Positions 7,724 to 22,961 of a stretch of DNA of 32,000 bases are shown here, piece after piece. The notes under the pieces are model-generated. The model was not told the DNA's origin. It did not search any database and saw nothing but the letters and a program-made list of their open reading frames with translations. Made by a program: the position numbers and the translations under genes. How positions within the stretch are numbered: the stretch's first letter is position 1; the number at the start of each line of letters is the position of its first letter. The DNA is from Candidatus Helarchaeota ASGARD archaeon Hel_GB_B (lineage in GTDB: Archaea > Asgardarchaeota > Lokiarchaeia > Helarchaeales > HEL-GB-B), in NCBI GenBank assembly GCA_005191425.1, contig SUPR01000006.1, positions 30,001 to 62,000 of the forward strand, read 5' to 3'.

Positions 7724-9223
7724 TCATATTTTAGATTCCATTTTTAAAATACTTTGTTTCCATTTATTATAATTCCATAAATTTGCCATAATTTTTGCGC
7801 CTTCAGCTGGATAAAAAACTGGAATTCCATATTCTCTTGCAAGTGTAACTCCATCATCTATAGGTCTATCATTATATCCAGTCATTATAACGGGTATTTG
7901 ATATTTTTTAATCATTCGTCTAAGGGCTCTAAAATTTTGATGATAAAGTTCACTCATTCCTGATTCCATTTCTTTTAGAGAATCACTTTTAAATAAATCA
8001 TCTCCTTTTAGATGGTCAGGCATATCTTCCATTACTTTTACCCAAAAATTAGTTGAAAATATTCCATAAAATATAATTGCATCTACTTCTCCAGATTCTA
8101 ATAATGTTTTAGGTATATTTTTAAAAAAATTTGACCAATCAGTATCAAAAGTTATATCAACTGGATTTTTAGAAGAGCCAGTAACGGGTAAATATTTATT
8201 TTTAATAATTTCCTGGGTTTTTTCAGATAATAAAGGAACTTTTAACCCATATTTTTCACAAAGATCCGCAATTAAAGTACCGGGACCACCACCAATTGTA
8301 ACCACCCCAACTCGCGGTCCTTTTGGTAATGGAACAGCAGACATTGCATATAATGTATTTAACCATTCAATTGTATTTTCAACTTGAATAATTCCTGTTT
8401 GGTGGCAGATATGTGAAAATAAATTTGAAGGCGTTGAAATTGCTGCAGTATGAGACAAGGCAGCCCTTTTACCAGCTTCACTCTGACCGATTTCAATTGC
8501 TACAATTGGCTTCTTTAATGCCACTCGCTTTGCTACTTCTATGAATTTCTTACCTCTGCGAATACCTTCTATATATAACCCAATAAATTTTGTTTCGGGA
8601 TCGTCTTCAAGAGCTTCTAAACAGTCGGTCAAATCGGTGGTTAAACAATTCCCTACCGAAATAACTCTAGCTAATCGAAATGGAATTTGTTTAATGCCTA
8701 ATAATATGTGAGCCGCAACACTCCCTGATTGACTAATTATTGAAATATTACCAGGTGGATGATAAATCGGCATGGGGGACATATAAATTTTGGATTTAGG
8801 TACAATCAATCCAATGCAGTTTGGCCCTAACATCGTAATATTATATTTTTCTACTATATTTTTGAGTTTTCTACTAATCTCATAATTTCCGATCTCATCA
8901 GCTCCCGCGGATACAACAATTACATTTTTAACTCCTTTTTTACCTATTTCTTCCATTATTTTATCAGCTAGCACTTTTATGGGTGCTACATAACACACCA
9001 TATCAACTTCATCAGGTATATCTAATATTGATTTATATGCCTTAAGTCCCATTATAGTATCATATTTTGGATGGATAGGATAGATTTTTCCCTTATATCC
9101 ACCTATAATTAAATTAATAGTATTAAAACTACCGAACCTCATGAATGATTTCGAAGCGCCATAAACAGCAATTGATTTAGGTTTAAAAAATTTCTCAAAT
9201 TTTTCAAATTTTGAAATTGTCAT
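7724..9223 (-). CDS. ADP-forming acyl-CoA synthetase (ACD) alpha-subunit-like CoA-binding protein
   Basis: PKSIAVYGAS, IYPIHP, LGPNCIG, ISQSG, SVGN, LYIEG, AALSHTAA (phospho-His site), GGGPG, NPVDIT. No ATP-grasp domain. Confidence 0.88.
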   Translation of the reverse strand: MTISKFEKFEKFFKPKSIAVYGASKSFMRFGSFNTINLIIGGYKGKIYPIHPKYDTIMGLKAYKSILDIPDEVDMVCYVAPIKVLADKIMEEIGKKGVKNVIVVSAGADEIGNYEISRKLKNIVEKYNITMLGPNCIGLIVPKSKIYMSPMPIYHPPGNISIISQSGSVAAHILLGIKQIPFRLARVISVGNCLTTDLTDCLEALEDDPETKFIGLYIEGIRRGKKFIEVAKRVALKKPIVAIEIGQSEAGKRAALSHTAAISTPSNLFSHICHQTGIIQVENTIEWLNTLYAMSAVPLPKGPRVGVVTIGGGPGTLIADLCEKYGLKVPLLSEKTQEIIKNKYLPVTGSSKNPVDITFDTDWSNFFKNIPKTLLESGEVDAIIFYGIFSTNFWVKVMEDMPDHLKGDDLFKSDSLKEMESGMSELYHQNFRALRRMIKKYQIPVIMTGYNDRPIDDGVTLAREYGIPVFYPAEGAKIMANLWNYNKWKQSILKMESKI

Positions 9224-10600: not shown

Positions 10601-11791
10601 TTAAACTAGATTTTCGACTCTTTTAGTATAGTCTAAATAATTTTTAGATTTATAATAATCAAACATTTCTTCTACAGCTTCTTCAAATGTTTTTTTTGGG
10701 ATATAATCCAATTCATTTTTAGCCTTCTTGGCGGTATAAAAACTTAGAAAACTTCCCGCCTTAACTGTAGACCGGCTCATTATTTCCGTTTGATTGAAAA
10801 GTTCCGATATTAATCCTACGAACCATCCTAAACGTTTTCCAATACCTAGAGAGGGGAATTTAATTTTACGATCAGAAACTTTAGACTGAATTACTTTTGT
10901 AATAATAGAAAGCATATCTTTCATAGTCCTATTGTCTTCGTCTTTACCAGTAATTATATATCGTTCTCCCAATTTTCCTTTAAGTAATGCTAAAAAATGA
11001 CCCCTTGCTACATCATCAACATGAGCTAATGGATAACCACCACATTTTATATATCCCGGCATTGAATTATGATAAATTCTAAGAAGATATAGACCATTTC
11101 CAATCAAATCATCGCCAGGACCAAAACTCGTCCCAGGTAGTATACTGACAACAGGGAGGTTATTTTCTTTATAGAACAGATTAACCAATTCTTGAGCTGC
11201 CAGTTTAGAGTCAAAATATCCAATTTTTATTTTATTCCACCATTTTTTAATTTTGTTTTTGTGAACAGATTCGATAAAATTTAAAGTTTCATCTTTAGAA
11301 TTAAAAATATGATTTTTAGGAACTTTTTTTCCAATTTCAGGGCGTTCATCTACATAAGGACTGGTATTTTCATTGCCAAGACTTCCAATTGGATATGGAC
11401 AACCGAGAGTATTTACAGTACTAGTGTATATGACCTTTTTAATGTCATTTTCTAAAGAAAGTTTCATAATATTTCTAGTACCTTCAACATTAACCAGCCA
11501 TTGAAGACGTTTTTTCTTGATATCCATAGAAGTATTTCCTGCAAAATGAAAAACAAAATCGACTCCTTTAAATGCAGGAGATAACATTTTTTTATCTAAA
11601 ATATCTGCGGGAAAAAGTTTTACCTTAATGTCATTAATTGAACTGGTCAAAGAATTTGGATAATAGACTACCTTAATATTAGAAGGATTAATACCATTTA
11701 ATATTAATTGCCTGATTAATCTAGAGCCTATAAATCCAGTTCCTCCAATTATTAAAAACTTTTTATCTATTAAATCATTTATTGATTTCAC
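10601..11791 (-). CDS. NAD-dependent epimerase/dehydratase (extended SDR, dihydroflavonol-reductase/HpnA-like)
   Basis: IIGGTGFIG, FHFAG, VNVEGTRN, YTSTV, catalytic YFDSK, ILPGTSFGPGD, AHVDDVARGH. Confidence 0.9.
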   Translation of the reverse strand: MKSINDLIDKKFLIIGGTGFIGSRLIRQLILNGINPSNIKVVYYPNSLTSSINDIKVKLFPADILDKKMLSPAFKGVDFVFHFAGNTSMDIKKKRLQWLVNVEGTRNIMKLSLENDIKKVIYTSTVNTLGCPYPIGSLGNENTSPYVDERPEIGKKVPKNHIFNSKDETLNFIESVHKNKIKKWWNKIKIGYFDSKLAAQELVNLFYKENNLPVVSILPGTSFGPGDDLIGNGLYLLRIYHNSMPGYIKCGGYPLAHVDDVARGHFLALLKGKLGERYIITGKDEDNRTMKDMLSIITKVIQSKVSDRKIKFPSLGIGKRLGWFVGLISELFNQTEIMSRSTVKAGSFLSFYTAKKAKNELDYIPKKTFEEAVEEMFDYYKSKNYLDYTKRVENLV

Positions 11792-11925: not shown

Positions 11926-13083
11926 ATGTCATTAATGCCAATTAAAGTTCCAATCATTTATCATGGAAAAGGTTCGTTAAAACAATTAAAATCGATGAAA
12001 CAGAAAAAAGTTTTAATTGTTACAGATAAAATCATAAGGGATATTCATGGGGATATGATTGAGAAATATCTTAAGAAGAAGGTATTTGCTTATTTTGATG
12101 AGGTTGAACCGGATCCAAAAGATAAAACGATAATTAAAGGCGGCGATTTTGCTAGAGAATTTAAGCCGGATTTGATTTTAGGGATTGGTGGCGGATCGGT
12201 AATGGACAGTGCAAAAGCTATTTATTTTTTATATGAGCGAGAGGACAAAACATTATATGAATGTGATCCGATATCATATTTAGGACTAGGTAAAAAGTCA
12301 AAATTAATTTTAGTTCCCACTACATCAGGTACTGGATCTGAGAATACACTAGCTGCAGTTATAACAAATACACAAACAGGACAAAAGGTAGTAATTGCAT
12401 CTCAAGAACTTCTTCCAGTCGCAATTATTTTAGACCCCAAACTTCCATTAAAAATGCCTCAAAGATTAACAGTTTCGACAGGGGTTGATGCAATTGTCCA
12501 TGCAGTTGAAGGTATTATCAATAAAATGAATAATGATTTTACTGAAGGATTAAATATACATGCACTTAAATTACTATTCGAATATCTTCCACAAGCAGCA
12601 GGAGATGGTGCAAACGACCTAAAAGTTAGAGAGAAGGTCCATAATGCAGCATCTATTGCAGGCATTGGGTTTGGAAATTCAAATTGTGGTATTGCACATT
12701 CTTGTGGCCATGCACTGGGTGCTGTACATCATATTCAACACGGGATTGCCGTAGGTACAATGCTACCATTTGTTTTGGAATTTAATAAACTTGTTAGCGA
12801 AAAAAAATACACAGATATACTTAATAGTCTCAATATTCCTATTAATGATAGCCCAACAAATACATTGGTTAACTTTATTAGAGATTTTATCAAAAAGCTG
12901 GGGCTTCCTCTTTCGTTAAAAGAACTCGGTATTTCTCAATCGGATTGGGATCAAAATTTAGACAGATTAGTAGAATTTGCTAAAACTGATGTAGTAGCAG
13001 TCTTTAACCCAAGATCCACTTCAGAAGAAGAATTTAAAAAGATTTTTGAACATGCATGGGAAGGAAAAAAAATCGATTTCTAA
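11926..13083 (+). CDS. Iron-containing alcohol dehydrogenase (butanol dehydrogenase-like)
   Basis: VEPDP, GIGGGSVMDSAK, PTTSGTGSE, GVDAIVHAVE, GIAHSCGHALG...HG metal ligands. Confidence 0.93.
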   Translation: MSLMPIKVPIIYHGKGSLKQLKSMKQKKVLIVTDKIIRDIHGDMIEKYLKKKVFAYFDEVEPDPKDKTIIKGGDFAREFKPDLILGIGGGSVMDSAKAIYFLYEREDKTLYECDPISYLGLGKKSKLILVPTTSGTGSENTLAAVITNTQTGQKVVIASQELLPVAIILDPKLPLKMPQRLTVSTGVDAIVHAVEGIINKMNNDFTEGLNIHALKLLFEYLPQAAGDGANDLKVREKVHNAASIAGIGFGNSNCGIAHSCGHALGAVHHIQHGIAVGTMLPFVLEFNKLVSEKKYTDILNSLNIPINDSPTNTLVNFIRDFIKKLGLPLSLKELGISQSDWDQNLDRLVEFAKTDVVAVFNPRSTSEEEFKKIFEHAWEGKKIDF

Positions 13084-15119: not shown

Positions 15120-16304
15120 TTAAGGTTTTTTATTTGTAAATATATTGACGCAGCCAATTGCTAGTGGCCCACCAAGGTTATGTTGTAGTCCTATTTCGGC
15201 GCCATCAACTTGTCTTTTTCTAGCTTCATTCCGAAGTTGAAACCAATTTTCACATATTTGTCCAATACCTGTTGCACCAATTGGATGGCCTTTGGCTTTT
15301 AACCCACCACTTGTATTTACTGGAAGTCGTCCACCCAAGCATACTTCACCTTCAGTTATTAATTTACCAGCTTCACCAGGTTTACAGAACCCTAAATCTT
15401 CATAATCAAGTAATTCTGTAAACGTAAAACAATCATGGACTTCCGCAAAATCTAAATCTTTAGGTTCTATTTTAGCCATTTTATAAGCTTCTTTAGCAGC
15501 CATTACTGTTGCTAAAGCAGAGGTTAACGATTGGCGATTTGGGATCCAATAAACATCTGCAGATTGCCCAGTCCCTAATAGATAAATTGGAGAATCAGTA
15601 TATTTTTTAGCTAATTCAGCTTTACAGAGTATTACCATTGCAGCGCCATCTGTTTGTGGACAACAGTCAAAAAGTCTGAAAGGATAAGATACAAGTGGAG
15701 CTGTACTCGCTTGTTCTTCGGTTATTTCAAACATAAAATGAGAATATGGACATAGAGAGCCATTATGATGATTCTTTACAGCTACTTTAGACATATATGT
15801 CCTCAATTTTTCATCACTTGCATATTTTTTAGCCCATGCGTTAGCATACATTGCAAAATAGGAAGGAGCAATTAGACCACGGTTTAATACTTGCTCTCTA
15901 CCTGCCACATATCGGAGAAAGTTTTGTGGCTCTTTTTCTCGCATTTTTTCAGCACCTACAGCAATTGCAACATCATATACCCCAGAAGCAACAGCAAAAG
16001 CCGCATTTCTAAAAGCATCTGAACCTGTAGCACATGCATTTTCGACTCTTGTAACTGGCTTTAATTTCAAATATGGAAGTGCAGTTATTAGACCAGCGCC
16101 AGATAAGACATCTCGTTGAGCAGAAATTCCACCCATACATGTCCCAATCCAAGCGGCCTCGACTTCTTTTTCTATATCTATTCCTTTATCTACACTATCA
16201 ATACAAGCGTTCGCTGCCATTCCTATTAGGTCGTAATAACTTTTATCAAATAATTCGCCAAATTTTATAAGTCCTGCACCAATAATAGCTACTTTACCGC
16301 GCAT
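15120..16304 (-). CDS. Archaeal/SCP2-type thiolase (acetyl-CoA C-acyltransferase)
   Basis: VENACATG (nucleophilic Cys), VKNHHNG, FDCCPQTDGAA, AEVHDCFT, GGLKAKGHPIGATG, HNLGG. Its ATG directly follows the TAA of the DUF35 gene. Confidence 0.93.
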   Translation of the reverse strand: MRGKVAIIGAGLIKFGELFDKSYYDLIGMAANACIDSVDKGIDIEKEVEAAWIGTCMGGISAQRDVLSGAGLITALPYLKLKPVTRVENACATGSDAFRNAAFAVASGVYDVAIAVGAEKMREKEPQNFLRYVAGREQVLNRGLIAPSYFAMYANAWAKKYASDEKLRTYMSKVAVKNHHNGSLCPYSHFMFEITEEQASTAPLVSYPFRLFDCCPQTDGAAMVILCKAELAKKYTDSPIYLLGTGQSADVYWIPNRQSLTSALATVMAAKEAYKMAKIEPKDLDFAEVHDCFTFTELLDYEDLGFCKPGEAGKLITEGEVCLGGRLPVNTSGGLKAKGHPIGATGIGQICENWFQLRNEARKRQVDGAEIGLQHNLGGPLAIGCVNIFTNKKP

Positions 16305-16703
16305 TTATTTTTCCTCCTTTTTTAATGGTCTGATTTTAGGCCCATAATAATTTAGTCCATCTTTTGTTGACATCCTTCTAATAACAATTTCAATTGGCAT
16401 CCCGATTTCAATATCTTTCTCCGATTCAATTTCTGTAAATTGCGTCATCAACCTTCCACCACCGTCCATCTCTATAACACCTTGTCCTAGAGGTCTATCG
16501 AATTCATCAGGCATATAATAATTTACAATATATGTTAGAACTCGTCCAGTACGAGCAAGTTGTACCTCCTCAAGTTCTTCACTCCCGCATTCTATACATT
16601 TTAATGTTTTAGGATAATTAACTCTCTCACATCTTTTACATTTGTACCCTTTAAACTGTAAATATGCATTCTTTTGTCTCCAAACATAGGGTAAATCGGT
16701 CAA
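16305..16703 (-). CDS. DUF35 Zn-ribbon/OB-fold protein (thiolase partner)
   Basis: CKRC-x10-CIEC ribbon, GRVLTY, OB-fold GGRLMTQF...IGMPIEIVIRR...YGPKIRP; TTG start with AAGGAG upstream. Confidence 0.92.
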   Translation of the reverse strand: MTDLPYVWRQKNAYLQFKGYKCKRCERVNYPKTLKCIECGSEELEEVQLARTGRVLTYIVNYYMPDEFDRPLGQGVIEMDGGGRLMTQFTEIESEKDIEIGMPIEIVIRRMSTKDGLNYYGPKIRPLKKEEK

Positions 16704-16720
16704 TTTTATCTTTAACTCCT

Positions 16721-17725
16721 TTATATTTGTCCTAAAAATTGTAAATATTTTGAATAATTTACTATTATTTTATTTTCTATAAAATATTGGACAGGAGGAT
16801 TACTTCTGAAGGTCTTTATATTATCTGTAACTTTTAGACTTATTGCCTGGCTTCCTCCAGAACTATAAGCAACAATTAATATTTCATCACCAGAATTAGC
16901 AGAGTCCAAGACTTTAGCAAGCCCAATAAAAACAGAGGCAGCCCCCAGGTCTCCAAAATAATTGGCAATATTTCCTTCTTTTAGTTTGTTTTTATCAAAT
17001 TTCATACTCTTCGCAATATATTCAGGAGCTTTTCCATTGGGTTGCTGTATAACTATATGTTTAAAGTCATTTAAATCTTTATTAGTACTCTCTAAAAGCC
17101 CAAGAATAGCATTTTTAATTGAGGGGATAAACCCAAATTCCCTTGTAAATCGCTCATCGCCGACTTTATAATCCGAATTAACGCCTTTCCAACGATCTGA
17201 AATTTCTATAGAATATGAATAATTACCAGTAATTGATGCTACTGGATTATCATTCCCAATTAAAATGGAAATTGCTCCAGCACCAAGAGACCTTTCTAGA
17301 ACTGAACCAGGTCTTGATTTTAAACAATCTGAAATTATTATTAAACCATTTGAATTTGTATTAAAGACCATATTTTTACAATTTATTAACGCCATTGCCC
17401 CTGCTTGAGCAGACCCACCAAAATCACTTGTAAAAACATTTTCATTAAGTCCTAACATGGAAACTAATAAAGTAGATACTGGCTTGTCAATATATGGCGA
17501 TGAAATACTTGCAAAATATAAAGAACCAATTGTAGTCAAGTTAAGTTCTAAATTATTTAATAGATTTAATGCAGATGCTAACCCCATTGATATTGAATCT
17601 TCATCCTTATAAGGAACTGATTTCTCATTGATACCAGAAGCACTTAATCCCCATATTGCTCGAATTTCTTTACTTGTTATTCGATAACGGGGGATGTATA
17701 TTTGATAACCAATAATTCCTGTCAT
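16721..17725 (-). CDS. HMG-CoA synthase-like (PhlA-like) protein lacking catalytic residues
   Basis: Full-length archaeal HMGS fold (GIIGYQIYIPRYRI, DEDS, GAGA, QPNGK, YSKY), but SESHPY is SISSPY, FACKAG is GSAQAG and HQPN is QQPN. Confidence 0.88.
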   Translation of the reverse strand: MTGIIGYQIYIPRYRITSKEIRAIWGLSASGINEKSVPYKDEDSISMGLASALNLLNNLELNLTTIGSLYFASISSPYIDKPVSTLLVSMLGLNENVFTSDFGGSAQAGAMALINCKNMVFNTNSNGLIIISDCLKSRPGSVLERSLGAGAISILIGNDNPVASITGNYSYSIEISDRWKGVNSDYKVGDERFTREFGFIPSIKNAILGLLESTNKDLNDFKHIVIQQPNGKAPEYIAKSMKFDKNKLKEGNIANYFGDLGAASVFIGLAKVLDSANSGDEILIVAYSSGGSQAISLKVTDNIKTFRSNPPVQYFIENKIIVNYSKYLQFLGQI

Positions 17726-18224
17726 AATATTTCACTTAATTTTTTTTCTAATTCATTGTAATTTTTGATAAAAATATTTTGTTTCATAAATTAAAATATA
17801 TTTAAAATAATTAAATCTATCAAGAATAAGTCCATCTTAATAAAAAATTTCTTTAAAATAAATTTTTTAAAAATATAATTGCAACTTAAAAAACCATAAA
17901 TTTTCATATTTTTATTAATTTTGAAAATCTCTTAACTGAATAACCAAATAAATAAATTTTTATCAATTATAATAATAATATGATTTTTTAATTTAAAATA
18001 ATTAATTGAAAAAATTATTATTGTTAAAGAAAGTTCAGAACTTACAAAATTTCCCGAATTTCTTTAAATTAATTTCGCCTTGTTTGGACTAAATTAAATC
18101 ATAAATATTACGAAAATGTTTATATATACAAAGCAAGTTCTCACTAATGCAATATTTTCGAAAAAATAAATGAAGTTGGGTATAAAATAGGAAATATAGA
18201 AATATTTTTAGAAAATATATAATA

Positions 18225-19807
18225 TTGGTAGCTTTATTTTTGGGTTTATTAATGATAATATCATCATTCATTAATATAACAAATGTTCAATTACAAGGAA
18301 AACTGGTAACAATAGAAGTAAATAATAAAAAATGGGATGCTGGAGGAGTTCCACTCTGGAATTATTTTATTAATGCCAAAAATATTGATTTTAAAGATAT
18401 TGATAAAATGTTAGATCTTGGAAATGATGCAGTCGCAGAAATCGTAGTGGGTGGGATGAATATATCTTCCAATAAAGGTATTATATTAGTTCTAAATGGC
18501 TTAACTGGGGCAGTAGTCCGGATGAAACATGTTCCACATAAAGTCTCACAAATAATTGCAGTTCAAGATTATACTGGAGATAGTCAACAAGAAATAGTTT
18601 TTTTTGATAATAATTATGATGTACATTGCTTAAATGGTATAAATGGAAGTTATATTTGGAATTTTAAAGGAACAGCAATAATATATTATATTTCAGAAGG
18701 AGATGATGCTAATAATGGTGGATATAGGGATATATTGGTTGAGTTTGGGCCATTACATAAATTGTTCTGCTTAAATGGTCTTAGCGGCATTGAAATTTGG
18801 AATTCTACCTTTACTGATCAAGTTGTTAAAGTAAAGAAATTCCAAGATGTTAATAGCGATGGAATAAGTGAAGTAATGGTCGGTTAGGGTTTCATTAATC
18901 CAACATTTGTTAGTCATCTATATGGAAATACTGGAACTAAAATTTAGAATGTTTCTACAAAAGACCAAGTTTATGACCTTATATCAGTTCCCGATATTGA
19001 TAATGATGGATATAAAGATATAATATATTTAACATCGTCTATCGATCATCGAACTGTGGGTTTAAATTCTAGAACCGGAGCTGTAAAATGGAATGTAAGT
19101 GAACTGAAACAAGGAAATTCTCTTGAATATAATATTGATAATACGTTTTTTGATTGCGCAGGAAATTTACGAAATACTATAGATGGATCAAAAATTTCAG
19201 ATGTCGGATTGTTTGTAATACCCCACCTATTGTTTCAAATTTTAAAGGATTAGTTGCATCTGGAGATAATTGGGGCAAAATTCATGTCAGAAGTATTCAC
19301 AATGGAACAAGATTTATTTACAAAAAAGTAAGCGATTATCAAATAGAGGATTTAATAGCAAACATTGATGTTAATGAAAATGGTATAGACGATTTTATCT
19401 GGTCTGATAGTGGTGGAAGAGTTTCAGTTTTAAGTGGAGGCGTTGTTGGGCCAACATTAGGTTCACCAAAAGATAAAACAATAATTCGAGGCACTACAGG
19501 TAATGAAATTAAATGGTCTGTTATTACTAAATTACATAAATCACGAACAATAACTGAAAATAGACAATCTTATAGTTCAGGAAATTTAGTGGATGATACA
19601 TTGACATTAAATATTGATAATTTGGGTTTAGGTGTTCACGTAATTAATTTAACAGTTACTGATAAATATGATCTAATGAATTATGATATTGTCATGGTTA
19701 ATGTTCAAAATATGCCCATCACGGCGGCAATTCCTGGATTTGAAGTACTATACGCATTTTTAGCGATAATGTCTTTTGGATTATTATATATTTTCTTGAA
19801 AAAATGA
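18225..19807 (+). pseudogene. Disrupted cell-surface protein: FG-GAP-type beta-propeller, Ig-like domain and PGF-type C-terminal sorting signal
   Basis: Continuous repeat homology across in-frame TAGs at 18885-18887 and 18945-18947 and a frameshift near 19210-19240. Joins track ORFs 18225..18887, 19056..19253 and 19154..19807; ends IPGF-TM-KK. Confidence 0.8.
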
Positions 19808-20755: not shown

Positions 20756-21514
20756 ATGATTTCTGGTTGGAATATATTTTTTGCAATGATTTTTGAAATT
20801 TGCATTTCTTCCGGTATTATAATTATTTCGGGATTATTTATATATAAATATTTGAAAAATAGGACTAAACCAAGGCTTTATATGGCAATTACTATGATAT
20901 GGTGGATATTGAGTGGTGTCTTCACATCTTCAGGAAGAATTGTAAAATTTATGGATTTAATCAATACAGGGACTTTCTATTCATATACTGCACCAACTTA
21001 TGTACCAGATTTTTTTATAGTTATAGCATTGACTTGTTTTGCTATAGGAAACTCGTTTTTGATGATTTTTCTCCAGAATTTTTTTAAGAAAAGTAAAGTT
21101 CTGTTAATAATTTATTTAATAATTAATGCATTTGCTATAATTTCAATGTCTTGGTTATCATTTACAATAACTTATCTTGGAACAAATGCAGAACAAATTT
21201 TTACGGATATTTGGAGTTTTAATGCATTATGTACATTATTTGTTACAATTTATATGGCATTTATTTCATTTCGCAGTGCTTCAAGGACTAACAAAATGGT
21301 AATTAAAAGAGGAAGTCAATTTATAGGACTTTCTGGAGTTTTTATGTTATTTATTAACATTTTTTTTGTTCTTGATGAAATAATAACTCCTGGATTTGGC
21401 GGAGCATTTACTATTTTTTATTATCTTGCCTGGATTTTCGTAGTTTTGAGCGAGTTATTTGTGTACCTTGGTTTTATCCTCCCAAAATGGTTAAGAAGAC
21501 GCTGGGAAAAATAA
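20756..21514 (+). CDS. Seven-TM integral membrane protein
   Basis: Seven hydrophobic segments; C-terminal GFILPKWLRRRW. Confidence 0.8.
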   Translation: MISGWNIFFAMIFEICISSGIIIISGLFIYKYLKNRTKPRLYMAITMIWWILSGVFTSSGRIVKFMDLINTGTFYSYTAPTYVPDFFIVIALTCFAIGNSFLMIFLQNFFKKSKVLLIIYLIINAFAIISMSWLSFTITYLGTNAEQIFTDIWSFNALCTLFVTIYMAFISFRSASRTNKMVIKRGSQFIGLSGVFMLFINIFFVLDEIITPGFGGAFTIFYYLAWIFVVLSELFVYLGFILPKWLRRRWEK

Positions 21515-21554: not shown

Positions 21555-22961
21555 TTGAAAATAAAAGAGTATATTGACAAATTATTTCACCCAAAATCAA
21601 TTGCTATAATTGAGGCATCTACTAAAATTCCGTGGTACATTCAAGGCATTATTGAAAGAAATTTTGAGGGTAATCTATATTTGGTTTCTAAAAAAGAAGA
21701 TAATATTTTTGGAATTAAATGCTTTAAAGATATTTCAAAAATACCTGACAAAATAGACCTCGCAATAATAGCTGTTAATCGAAATAAACTGATTGACGTA
21801 ATAAAAAAATGTATAGAAAAACAATTTTTTAATTTACACATATTTTCAGCTGGACTTGGAGAATATGATGAGAAAGGTATTGAAATTGAAAATGAAATTT
21901 ACAATTTATTGAAAAATAGTAATACAAAAGCCATAGGACCGAATTGCATGGGAATTTATTCCACTGAAGGTAGACTCTCTTATAGCCCATATTTTTCAAA
22001 AGAAGAATGCAAAAAAAGATGCGTTTCATTTGTATCTCATTCCGGAGATTTAACTACACGATATGTTATCCGGACTAATGACTATGGGGTAAATTTTCAT
22101 AATGTTGCTAGTATAGGAAATTCTATTAGCTTAAAGTTTTCCGATTTTATTTCTTATTTTAGCGAAATCGATAGGGCAGATATAATTGCCGGTTATTTCG
22201 AGGGTTTTTCTCGGTTCAATGAATTGGAGGGTAAAATATTAATTGATATACTTAAAAAAAATAAAAAACCAATATTATTATTAAAAGGAGGGACCACATC
22301 CGATGGTAAAAGAGCTGTATCATCTCATACTGGGACAATTGCATCGAATTCTAACTTATGGAATTGTATTTTTAAGCAATCAAATGCCATTAAAATAGAA
22401 ACATATGAAGAACTCATCGATTCTACGATTGCTTTTTATTTTTGTAAAGAATATTACCCAACTGTAAAAAGTCTTCTTATAATTACTTGGAGCGGCGGTA
22501 AAGCTGTATTGGGAGTTGATCGGACTATAAATCTGGGAATAAAGGTACCAGAAATCCAAGAACCGACTAAAACAAAAATGAAATCCATGATCTCAATTGG
22601 GAGTATTTCAAACCCTCTTGACCTACCTTGGATTGGAAGATCTGAAAAATTTTCTGAAATATGTAAGTTAGCTATTAGCGAGCCCTATATTGGTGGAGTA
22701 ATTTTCGAAACATATGCACCCCGTCAATTTGATGAGAGATATGAAATCTATTTTCAAAATATTCTAAAAATATTCAATCATTGTAAAAATTATAAAAAAC
22801 CATTTTTAATGTCTTTACCCTTTGCAAATATAAAACAACGAGAAAAATTAAAAGAGAAATTTATTAAATATTCTATACCAATTTTCCCAAGTATAGAACG
22901 AGCCGCAAAAGCATTTTTAAATCTTTATTATTTTAAACATCATCAAAATAATGTAATTTAA
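21555..22961 (+). CDS. Second ACD alpha-subunit-like CoA-binding protein (divergent)
   Basis: PKSIAII, IGPNCMG, SHSG, SIGN, YFEG, AVSSHTG (phospho-His), SNPLDL; TTG start with GGTGA upstream; no ATP-grasp domain. Confidence 0.85.
   Translation: MKIKEYIDKLFHPKSIAIIEASTKIPWYIQGIIERNFEGNLYLVSKKEDNIFGIKCFKDISKIPDKIDLAIIAVNRNKLIDVIKKCIEKQFFNLHIFSAGLGEYDEKGIEIENEIYNLLKNSNTKAIGPNCMGIYSTEGRLSYSPYFSKEECKKRCVSFVSHSGDLTTRYVIRTNDYGVNFHNVASIGNSISLKFSDFISYFSEIDRADIIAGYFEGFSRFNELEGKILIDILKKNKKPILLLKGGTTSDGKRAVSSHTGTIASNSNLWNCIFKQSNAIKIETYEELIDSTIAFYFCKEYYPTVKSLLIITWSGGKAVLGVDRTINLGIKVPEIQEPTKTKMKSMISIGSISNPLDLPWIGRSEKFSEICKLAISEPYIGGVIFETYAPRQFDERYEIYFQNILKIFNHCKNYKKPFLMSLPFANIKQREKLKEKFIKYSIPIFPSIERAAKAFLNLYYFKHHQNNVI

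Follow-up and report, generated by a model that had tools for sequence, protein, structure and literature searches.

The operon described here lies on the minus strand, at positions 15120–17725, of a 32,000-nucleotide stretch of archaeal DNA (the window; contig SUPR01000006.1, positions 30,001–62,000 of the forward strand) from assembly GCA_005191425.1 of the Asgard archaeon Candidatus Helarchaeota Hel_GB_B. It consists of three tightly packed open reading frames (ORFs), which encode in order a protein resembling 3-hydroxy-3-methylglutaryl-coenzyme A (HMG-CoA) synthase (HMGS), a DUF35 protein and an SCP2-type thiolase (Table 1). A preliminary description of this DNA had reported three coupled genes with a 17-nt gap followed by an abutting TAA–ATG, and both junctions, read directly, match it exactly. 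A Shine–Dalgarno-like AGGAG opens the spacer between the HMGS-like and DUF35 genes; the DUF35 stop codon abuts the thiolase start codon with nothing between, and a GGAGG inside the DUF35 gene, eight bases 5′ of that ATG, serves the thiolase. The three genes are translationally coupled. The window is AT-rich (about 21–33% G+C), and the assembly amounts to 3.54 Mb in 182 contigs at 94% completeness, with the operon on the contig labelled C150.

The HMGS-like protein has lost its entire catalytic tetrad. It was aligned by HMMER, with residue counting, to the HMGCS of Methanothermococcus thermolithotrophicus (6ESQ chain I; E = 1.8e-52) and to PhlA (5M3K chain A; E = 6.5e-37), with the reference tetrad E82/C114/H238/N270 (E-C-H-N) numbered as in PMC12960953 and PMC6392133. 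All four residues are absent and the positions read I/A/Q/D, exactly the replacements named in the preliminary description (Glu to Ile74, Cys to Ala106, His to Gln227 and GNT to GDL); canonical archaeal-type HMGS in the same alignment read E-C-H-N in 18 of 18 cases. The only cysteines of the protein, C116 and the non-conserved C134, both lie away from the nucleophile elbow. PhlA carries C/G/Q/D at the tetrad positions, with FQQ and GDAGSAS, so that the PhlA motifs given in the preliminary description (QQ and GDxGAAS) stand. An AlphaFold2 model built from a 26-row alignment reached a mean predicted local distance difference test (pLDDT) of 92.8 and superposed with template-modelling (TM) scores of 0.93 on 6ET9 chain I, 0.91 on PhlA and 0.88 on MucA. 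The modelled HMGS fold is intact despite the loss of the tetrad.

Table 1. Operon features, diagnostic codons and neighbouring genes, in window coordinates.
Feature	Position	Strand	Detail
HMGS-like subunit	17725..16721	-	334 aa, ATG start
HMGS-like stop codon	16723-16721	-	TAA
Spacer, HMGS-like stop to DUF35 start	16704..16720	-	17 nt, read directly
Shine–Dalgarno-like motif in spacer	16720-16716	-	AGGAG
DUF35 protein	16703..16305	-	132 aa, TTG start (16703-16701)
GGAGG inside DUF35 gene	16317-16313	-	
DUF35 stop codon	16307-16305	-	TAA
SCP2-type thiolase	16304..15120	-	394 aa, ATG start (16304-16302)
Tetrad Glu (E82)	17506-17504	-	codon; reference ESHPY, window ISSPY, I74
Ser105, HMGS-like	17413-17411	-	codon
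Tetrad Cys (C114)	17410-17408	-	codon; reference FACKAG, window GSAQAG, A106
Tetrad His (H238)	17047-17045	-	codon; reference FHQPNG, window IQQPNG, Q227
Tetrad Asn (N270)	16951-16949	-	codon; reference GNTYSG, window GDLGAA, D259; GNT replaced by G258-D259-L260
Gly261, HMGS-like	16945-16943	-	codon
Thiolase nucleophile Cys91	16034-16032	-	NAC91ATGS, present
Thiolase His290 of HDCF	15437-15435	-	VH290DCF, present
Thiolase His340 of GHP	15287-15285	-	GH340P, present
Intergenic region 5′ of operon	17726..18224	.	499 nt, AT-rich; shared with divergent + strand ORF; presumed promoter region
Acyl-CoA synthetase-type gene	7724-9223	-	ADP-forming type, CoA_binding + Succ_CoA_lig
Acyl-CoA synthetase-type gene	21555-22961	+	ADP-forming type, CoA_binding + Succ_CoA_lig
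Epimerase/3-beta-HSD-family gene	10601-11791		
Fe-alcohol dehydrogenase gene	11926-13083		
ORF	18225-18887	+	no Pfam match
ORF	19154-19807	+	no Pfam match
ORF	20756-21514	+	no Pfam match

Sequence comparison indicates that the tetrad loss is old and has been retained under selection. Among 1.8 billion representatives, searched exhaustively with HMMER, 1,714 relatives were found. The closest homologues belong to Helarchaeota, Helarchaeales and Lokiarchaeota metagenome-assembled genomes. In a FastTree phylogeny of 220 of the 1,714, with moderate deep support, the orthologues form a clade (support 1.0) that lies within a larger one of about 198 sequences, all tetrad-less (support 0.93). The larger clade mixes unfused proteins of ~340 aa, mostly from Asgard archaea, with HMGS–DUF35 fusions of ~480 aa, mostly bacterial. 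Two other clades hold the E-C-H-N archaeal HMGS and the PhlA-like CGQD sequences, respectively, and the window protein falls outside the latter. The eight orthologues (50–67% identity) carry [ITV]/[AS]/Q/D at the tetrad positions, and all eight have an intact frame. The ratio of nonsynonymous to synonymous substitution (dN/dS) is ~0.18 between the source genome (G000) and the related genome G001, a value from one pair whose dS of 1.4 is near saturation, dS being saturated in all other pairs. The earlier view of a preserved fold selected as a non-catalytic subunit is borne out by this ratio, the eight orthologues and the confident model. Strain-specific decay, which the preliminary description had named as an outcome that would overturn its reading, is ruled out by the eight orthologues lacking E/C/H, by the dN/dS and by the spread of paralogue types across related genomes.

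Between G000 and G003 identity is 50% for the HMGS-like protein, 63–65% for DUF35 and 77% for the thiolase, and the faster divergence of the HMGS-like protein is what would be expected of a subunit freed from catalytic constraint yet still needed. The order HMGS-like, DUF35, thiolase is kept in G001, in G003 and around a distant homologue of the same type (type A, below) in G005, with differing flanks. In G003 a 292-aa ORF without a Pfam match (contig C19; L018:7140-8018, minus strand) overlaps the end of the thiolase gene by 4 nt and may be a fourth member of the operon; it has no counterpart in the window.

The other two subunits retain their diagnostic residues. The thiolase keeps the standard motifs ascribed to it earlier (Cys91, HDCF and GHP), and the Cys91, HDxF and GHx motifs are invariant across five orthologues and paralogues. 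Among solved structures it matches the thiolase chain of 6ESQ best (7.3e-70) and PhlC much less well (1e-27). The DUF35 protein contains PF12172 (27.9 bits) and PF01796 (48 bits), both above their cut-offs, corresponding to a rubredoxin-like zinc ribbon, whose four cysteines (C22, C25, C36 and C39) are all invariant, and an oligonucleotide/oligosaccharide-binding (OB) fold; its closest match among solved structures is again in 6ESQ, the DUF35 chain (3.4e-15). That each subunit finds its best solved relative in a different chain of 6ESQ supports the existence of one complex. A three-chain complex prediction with the HMGS-like protein as partner gave a median interface score (ipSAE) of 0.29 against a mark of 0.32, in a run without controls, and so speaks neither for nor against assembly.

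From sequence we infer physical assembly, reaction direction and substrate, and the operon probably encodes a thiolase-only complex in which the HMGS-like and DUF35 proteins are non-catalytic, structural partners. The three proteins would form one heteromeric complex on the archaeal thiolase/HMGCS/DUF35 plan, with a single kind of active site. There the thiolase, with Cys91 as nucleophile together with His290 and His340, would carry out reversible thiolysis or Claisen condensation of 3-ketoacyl-CoA. The HMGS-like subunit, with Glu/Cys/His/Asn replaced by Ile/Ala/Gln/Asp, would not synthesize HMG-CoA; as a dimer, along with DUF35, it would keep the thiolase soluble and competent within the complex. 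Joining two acetyl-CoA is an endergonic reaction. Because no live HMGS would pull this condensation, net thiolysis, as the last step of a β-oxidation-type route, would be the default direction unless a reductase elsewhere removes the product, as happens in the Sulfolobus acidocaldarius fatty-acid synthase (bioRxiv 10.1101/2024.07.05.601840). The HMGS-like subunit probably also helps to line a chamber for CoA where the subunits meet: the CoA site of 6ESQ is built from residues of all three proteins at their interface (PMC6392133), which would supply a reason to keep a dead subunit.

Characterised complexes are consistent with this proposal. An archaeal HMGS whose tetrad was replaced no longer formed HMG-CoA (Liao et al., Nat Commun 2026, PMC12960953). 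In the same work a Pseudomonas fluorescens complex, PfACAT/HMGS-DUF35, in which a tetrad-less HMGS–DUF35 fusion accompanies a thiolase (ACAT) with Cys, HDxF and GHx, cleaved acetoacetyl-CoA in dependence on the HDxF His and made neither HMG-CoA nor acetoacetyl-CoA (PMC12960953). The window operon shows the same residue state and is therefore read as a thiolase-only complex. The two systems also share a DUF35 component and the lack of polyketide synthase (PKS) or nonribosomal peptide synthetase (NRPS) neighbours, none being found among the neighbouring window genes checked, and the window protein belongs to the same tetrad-less radiation as the ~480-aa fusions, a placement made with the P. fluorescens sequence itself unaligned. 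They differ in that the HMGS-like and DUF35 proteins of the window are separate genes, in the order of the genes, in the Asgard host and in the Gln that, as in PhlA, occupies the His position; the fused version in the source genome is a separate paralogue. With the M. thermolithotrophicus complex (6ESQ/6ET9) the operon shares the unfused three-protein set, the thiolase catalytic residues and the HMGS fold, whereas the change from E82/C114/H238/N270 to I/A/Q/D means that the exergonic second reaction and intermediate channelling are lost.

Two further systems bear on the comparison. The Sulfolobus acidocaldarius fatty acid synthase (Saci_1121/1120) likewise joins an SCP2-type ketothiolase (KT) to a scaffolding DUF35; there the KT occurs in obligate pairing with DUF35, a scaffold for additional partners, and Asgard archaea in particular often carry several KT/DUF35 pairs per genome (bioRxiv 10.1101/2024.07.05.601840). 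No HMGS-like subunit has been reported for that complex, and the window operon for its part has no linked reductase or dehydratase genes. BbsAB, the benzoylsuccinyl-CoA thiolase of Geobacter metallireducens (7PXP), is also built from DUF35 and an SCP2-type thiolase, with HDxF for reversible thiolysis, but it is a two-subunit enzyme lacking an HMGS-like partner, and the window proteins score far below the BbsAB family cut-offs (48 versus 250 and 178 versus 750 bits).

The source genome holds four HMGS-like genes, of which three are tetrad-less (window, C105 and C93) and one bears the tetrad. The preliminary description had raised the possibility of a second, intact HMGS, and this is it: a 545-aa protein on contig C95 (L020:7954-9591, minus strand) with E/C/H/N intact and a Cys-rich C-terminal tail. 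It stands beside an MVD-like decarboxylase, HMG-CoA reductase and GHMP kinase (L020:2472-10530), with an amino-acid-kinase-family protein (isopentenyl-phosphate-kinase-like) and an FMN_dh protein (type-2-IDI-like) in the same cluster and a cis-prenyltransferase adjoining. Judged by its predicted gene content, C95 carries a full mevalonate cluster. No thiolase gene was found in this cluster, so acetoacetyl-CoA must come from one of the genome's seven thiolases. The seven thiolase/DUF35 pairs of the source genome are in line with the Asgard average of 3.8 KT/DUF35 pairs (bioRxiv 10.1101/2024.07.05.601840). One of the seven SCP2-type thiolase genes (C139:11196-12443) has an in-frame TAA between matching halves and may be broken or split.

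The tetrad-less proteins fall into three types. Type A, the window type, reads xAQD or xPQD; type B, that of C105, reads xEQD with DFKESEKAG; and type C, the fused type, reads TTYN. In the source genome the C105 paralogue has V/E/Q/D and the gene order thiolase, HMGS-like, DUF35, and the C93 paralogue is an HMGS-like::DUF35 fusion (T/T/Y/N) followed by a thiolase. We take the M. thermolithotrophicus operon order to be thiolase, HMGCS, DUF35, an order that the C105 paralogue keeps and from which the window operon departs. Beyond the source genome, dead types occur in G001–G005, and all three types occur together in G000, G001, G003, G004 and G005; tetrad-less matches of G006 were left out of tetrad scoring. 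An E-C-H-N HMGS was found in five of the seven genomes of the order (G000, G001, G004, G005 and G006, one each). The G005 copy (L036, G005:C7) has a DUF35-like segment fused N-terminally, unlike the C-terminal tail in G000, and the G004 copy (L025, G004:C150) has a weak thiolase-like match just upstream, the open frames in these two genomes spanning 552–571 aa. In G002 the HMGS match is a 67-aa fragment at a contig end with an unreadable tetrad. Searches of G003 (94% complete) with TIGR00748, PF01154 or the C95 protein recovered no intact HMGS, only the three tetrad-less types. This gap bears on whether a tetrad-less form could substitute for the live enzyme, and it is probably an assembly gap.

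Several observations weigh against a purely structural HMGS-like subunit serving a thiolytic complex. An HMGS-like partner is not a strict requirement of the thiolase family, since four further thiolase/DUF35 pairs of the genome lack one, and the flanking genes, which are not conserved in G003, give no pathway clue to substrate or direction. Conserved residues beside the old active site suggest that the pocket may still be doing something specific. Across the tetrad-less clade Ser105 is found in 168 of 201 sequences (84%; Ala in live enzymes), Gly261 in 189 of 201 (94%; Tyr in 19 of 19 live enzymes) and Arg or Lys at position 107 in 182 of 201; Asp259 is conserved as well, whereas the "lost" positions themselves vary. 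A remodelled pocket formed by Ser105, Asp259, Gly261 and Gln227 could thus bind a second substrate or an acyl chain, set chain length or catalyse another reaction, making the complex a two-function machine, for instance in Asgard fatty-acid synthesis or degradation. Up to three dead paralogue types with their own signatures, conserved across genera of the order, suggest specialisation. The recruitment of more fatty-acid synthesis enzymes by KT/DUF35 complexes of S. acidocaldarius and the multiplicity of such pairs in Asgard genomes (bioRxiv 10.1101/2024.07.05.601840) also favour a second function. However, the canonical elbow position offers no conserved nucleophile, mutation of the thiolase alone nearly abolished the activity of the one characterised complex in this state (PMC12960953), only PhlC residues contact the substrate in PhlABC (PMC6392133), and the conserved residues could merely maintain a shared CoA chamber. 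We consider a second function of this kind unlikely. It is similarly doubtful that the Helarchaeales-type tetrad-less proteins are diversified specificity or second-site subunits that tune thiolase complexes for different acyl-CoAs in CoA-based fatty-acid or alkane-derived acyl metabolism; if they were, a family of specificity subunits would lie in the closest archaeal relatives of eukaryotes.

The absence of a thiolase from the C95 cluster also leaves room for the window thiolase to supply acetoacetyl-CoA to the C95 HMGS, with the dead HMGS as a relic docking partner. Such a role, a further point against the thiolytic complex, would fit the closeness of the window thiolase to the M. thermolithotrophicus mevalonate thiolase and its 351 bits on NF053570. 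Yet the C105 thiolase scores higher on that model (427 bits), the intact HMGS of relatives is fused to a DUF35 of its own (G005) or stands next to a thiolase-like gene (G004), and condensation is unfavourable without channelling to a live HMGS and was not detected in the P. fluorescens complex (PMC12960953); we regard this supply route as quite improbable. Smaller still is the chance that the operon encodes a Friedel–Crafts C-acyltransferase of the PhlABC or MucABC type, transferring an acyl group from the thiolase Cys to a phenolic or other non-CoA acceptor, as the preliminary description had proposed. Like PhlABC (Pseudomonas protegens, 5M3K/5MG5) and MucABC (Streptococcus macacae, 9VBO), the operon has three separate subunits and a tetrad-less HMGS-like protein that shows the Gln and GD.G.AS motifs of PhlA. 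The model of this protein fits the structures of PhlA and MucA closely (TM 0.88–0.91), and in both acyltransferases the HMGS-like subunit has no direct catalytic role (for PhlABC, PMC6392133). That proposal nevertheless does not hold up well against the thiolase. PhlC and MucB keep Cys and GHx and have lost HDxF (PMC12960953), whereas HDCF is present and invariant here, a comparison with PhlC made on the HDxF criterion only. The PhlABC/MucABC thiolase-like subunits have moreover gained acceptor-binding residues and lie in PKS/NRPS clusters, unlike the window operon; the window thiolase is far closer to archaeal acetoacetyl-CoA thiolase than to PhlC (7e-70 versus 1e-27), the HMGS-like protein lies outside the PhlA clade, and only 29 of 1,030 bacterial loci with these parts are linked to secondary metabolism (PMC12960953). 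Hardly credible is the view that the gene encodes a genuine HMG-CoA synthase in which other residues compensate, or that it is a pseudogene in decay. The protein does pass one HMGS model (NF003274), but the whole tetrad is missing, in an enzyme family where its replacement abolished HMG-CoA formation in the archaeal enzyme (PMC12960953), C116 and C134 are away from the elbow and TIGR00748 is failed; decay is contradicted by the intact frames in eight orthologues, the low dN/dS and the confident structure model.

Automated annotation misplaces these genes, as the preliminary description had anticipated. NF003274, an NCBIfam "equivalog" for HMG-CoA synthase with a cut-off of 244 bits, accepts both the window protein (292 bits) and the C105 paralogue (268 bits), and the NCBI and JGI records of the window protein's relatives are named hydroxymethylglutaryl-CoA synthase. 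The window protein does fail TIGR00748 (213 bits, cut-off 353). The tetrad-bearing HMGS of C95 passes no HMGS model (NF003274, 188 against 244; TIGR01835, 226 against 360). Automated mevalonate-pathway reconstruction in Asgard genomes can consequently point to the wrong genes.

The concept of a dead HMGS combined with a live thiolase and DUF35 has already been published for bacteria, in 2026 (PMC12960953), and the earlier characterization of the window complex as uncharacterised therefore holds in part: a bacterial complex in the same state has been characterised, while no description of the archaeal, unfused form was found in the literature searched. The present operon extends this concept to an archaeal member that is unfused, has a distinct gene order, is conserved across Helarchaeales-type genera and is one of up to three dead types. 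Liao et al. proposed such dead-HMGS/live-thiolase complexes as a bacterial "evolutionary intermediate" (PMC12960953). The unfused archaeal occurrence, purifying selection and up to three anciently diverged paralogue types argue instead that the state is a stable, functional end point and no way-station. Earlier work ties Asgard thiolase/DUF35 pairs to fatty-acid metabolism and the lipid divide; those with an extra HMGS-like subunit are targets for biochemistry.

Around the operon lie genes for TGT, PAP2, an Fe-alcohol dehydrogenase, an epimerase-family protein and CoA-ligase-like proteins, with ORFs of unknown function; TGT comes next after the thiolase stop, across a 180-nt gap. Two paralogous acyl-CoA synthetase-type genes flank the region at 6–8 kb and 4 kb, and the Fe-alcohol dehydrogenase and epimerase/3-beta-hydroxysteroid dehydrogenase (3-beta-HSD)-family genes are also near; this arrangement is not kept in G003. 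Three ORFs of 217–252 aa are divergent from the operon or lie near it. Among the sequencing runs listed with matching DNA there was no RNA run, only DNA, and the DNA of the stretch is also present in hydrothermal-vent and marine-sediment metagenomes.

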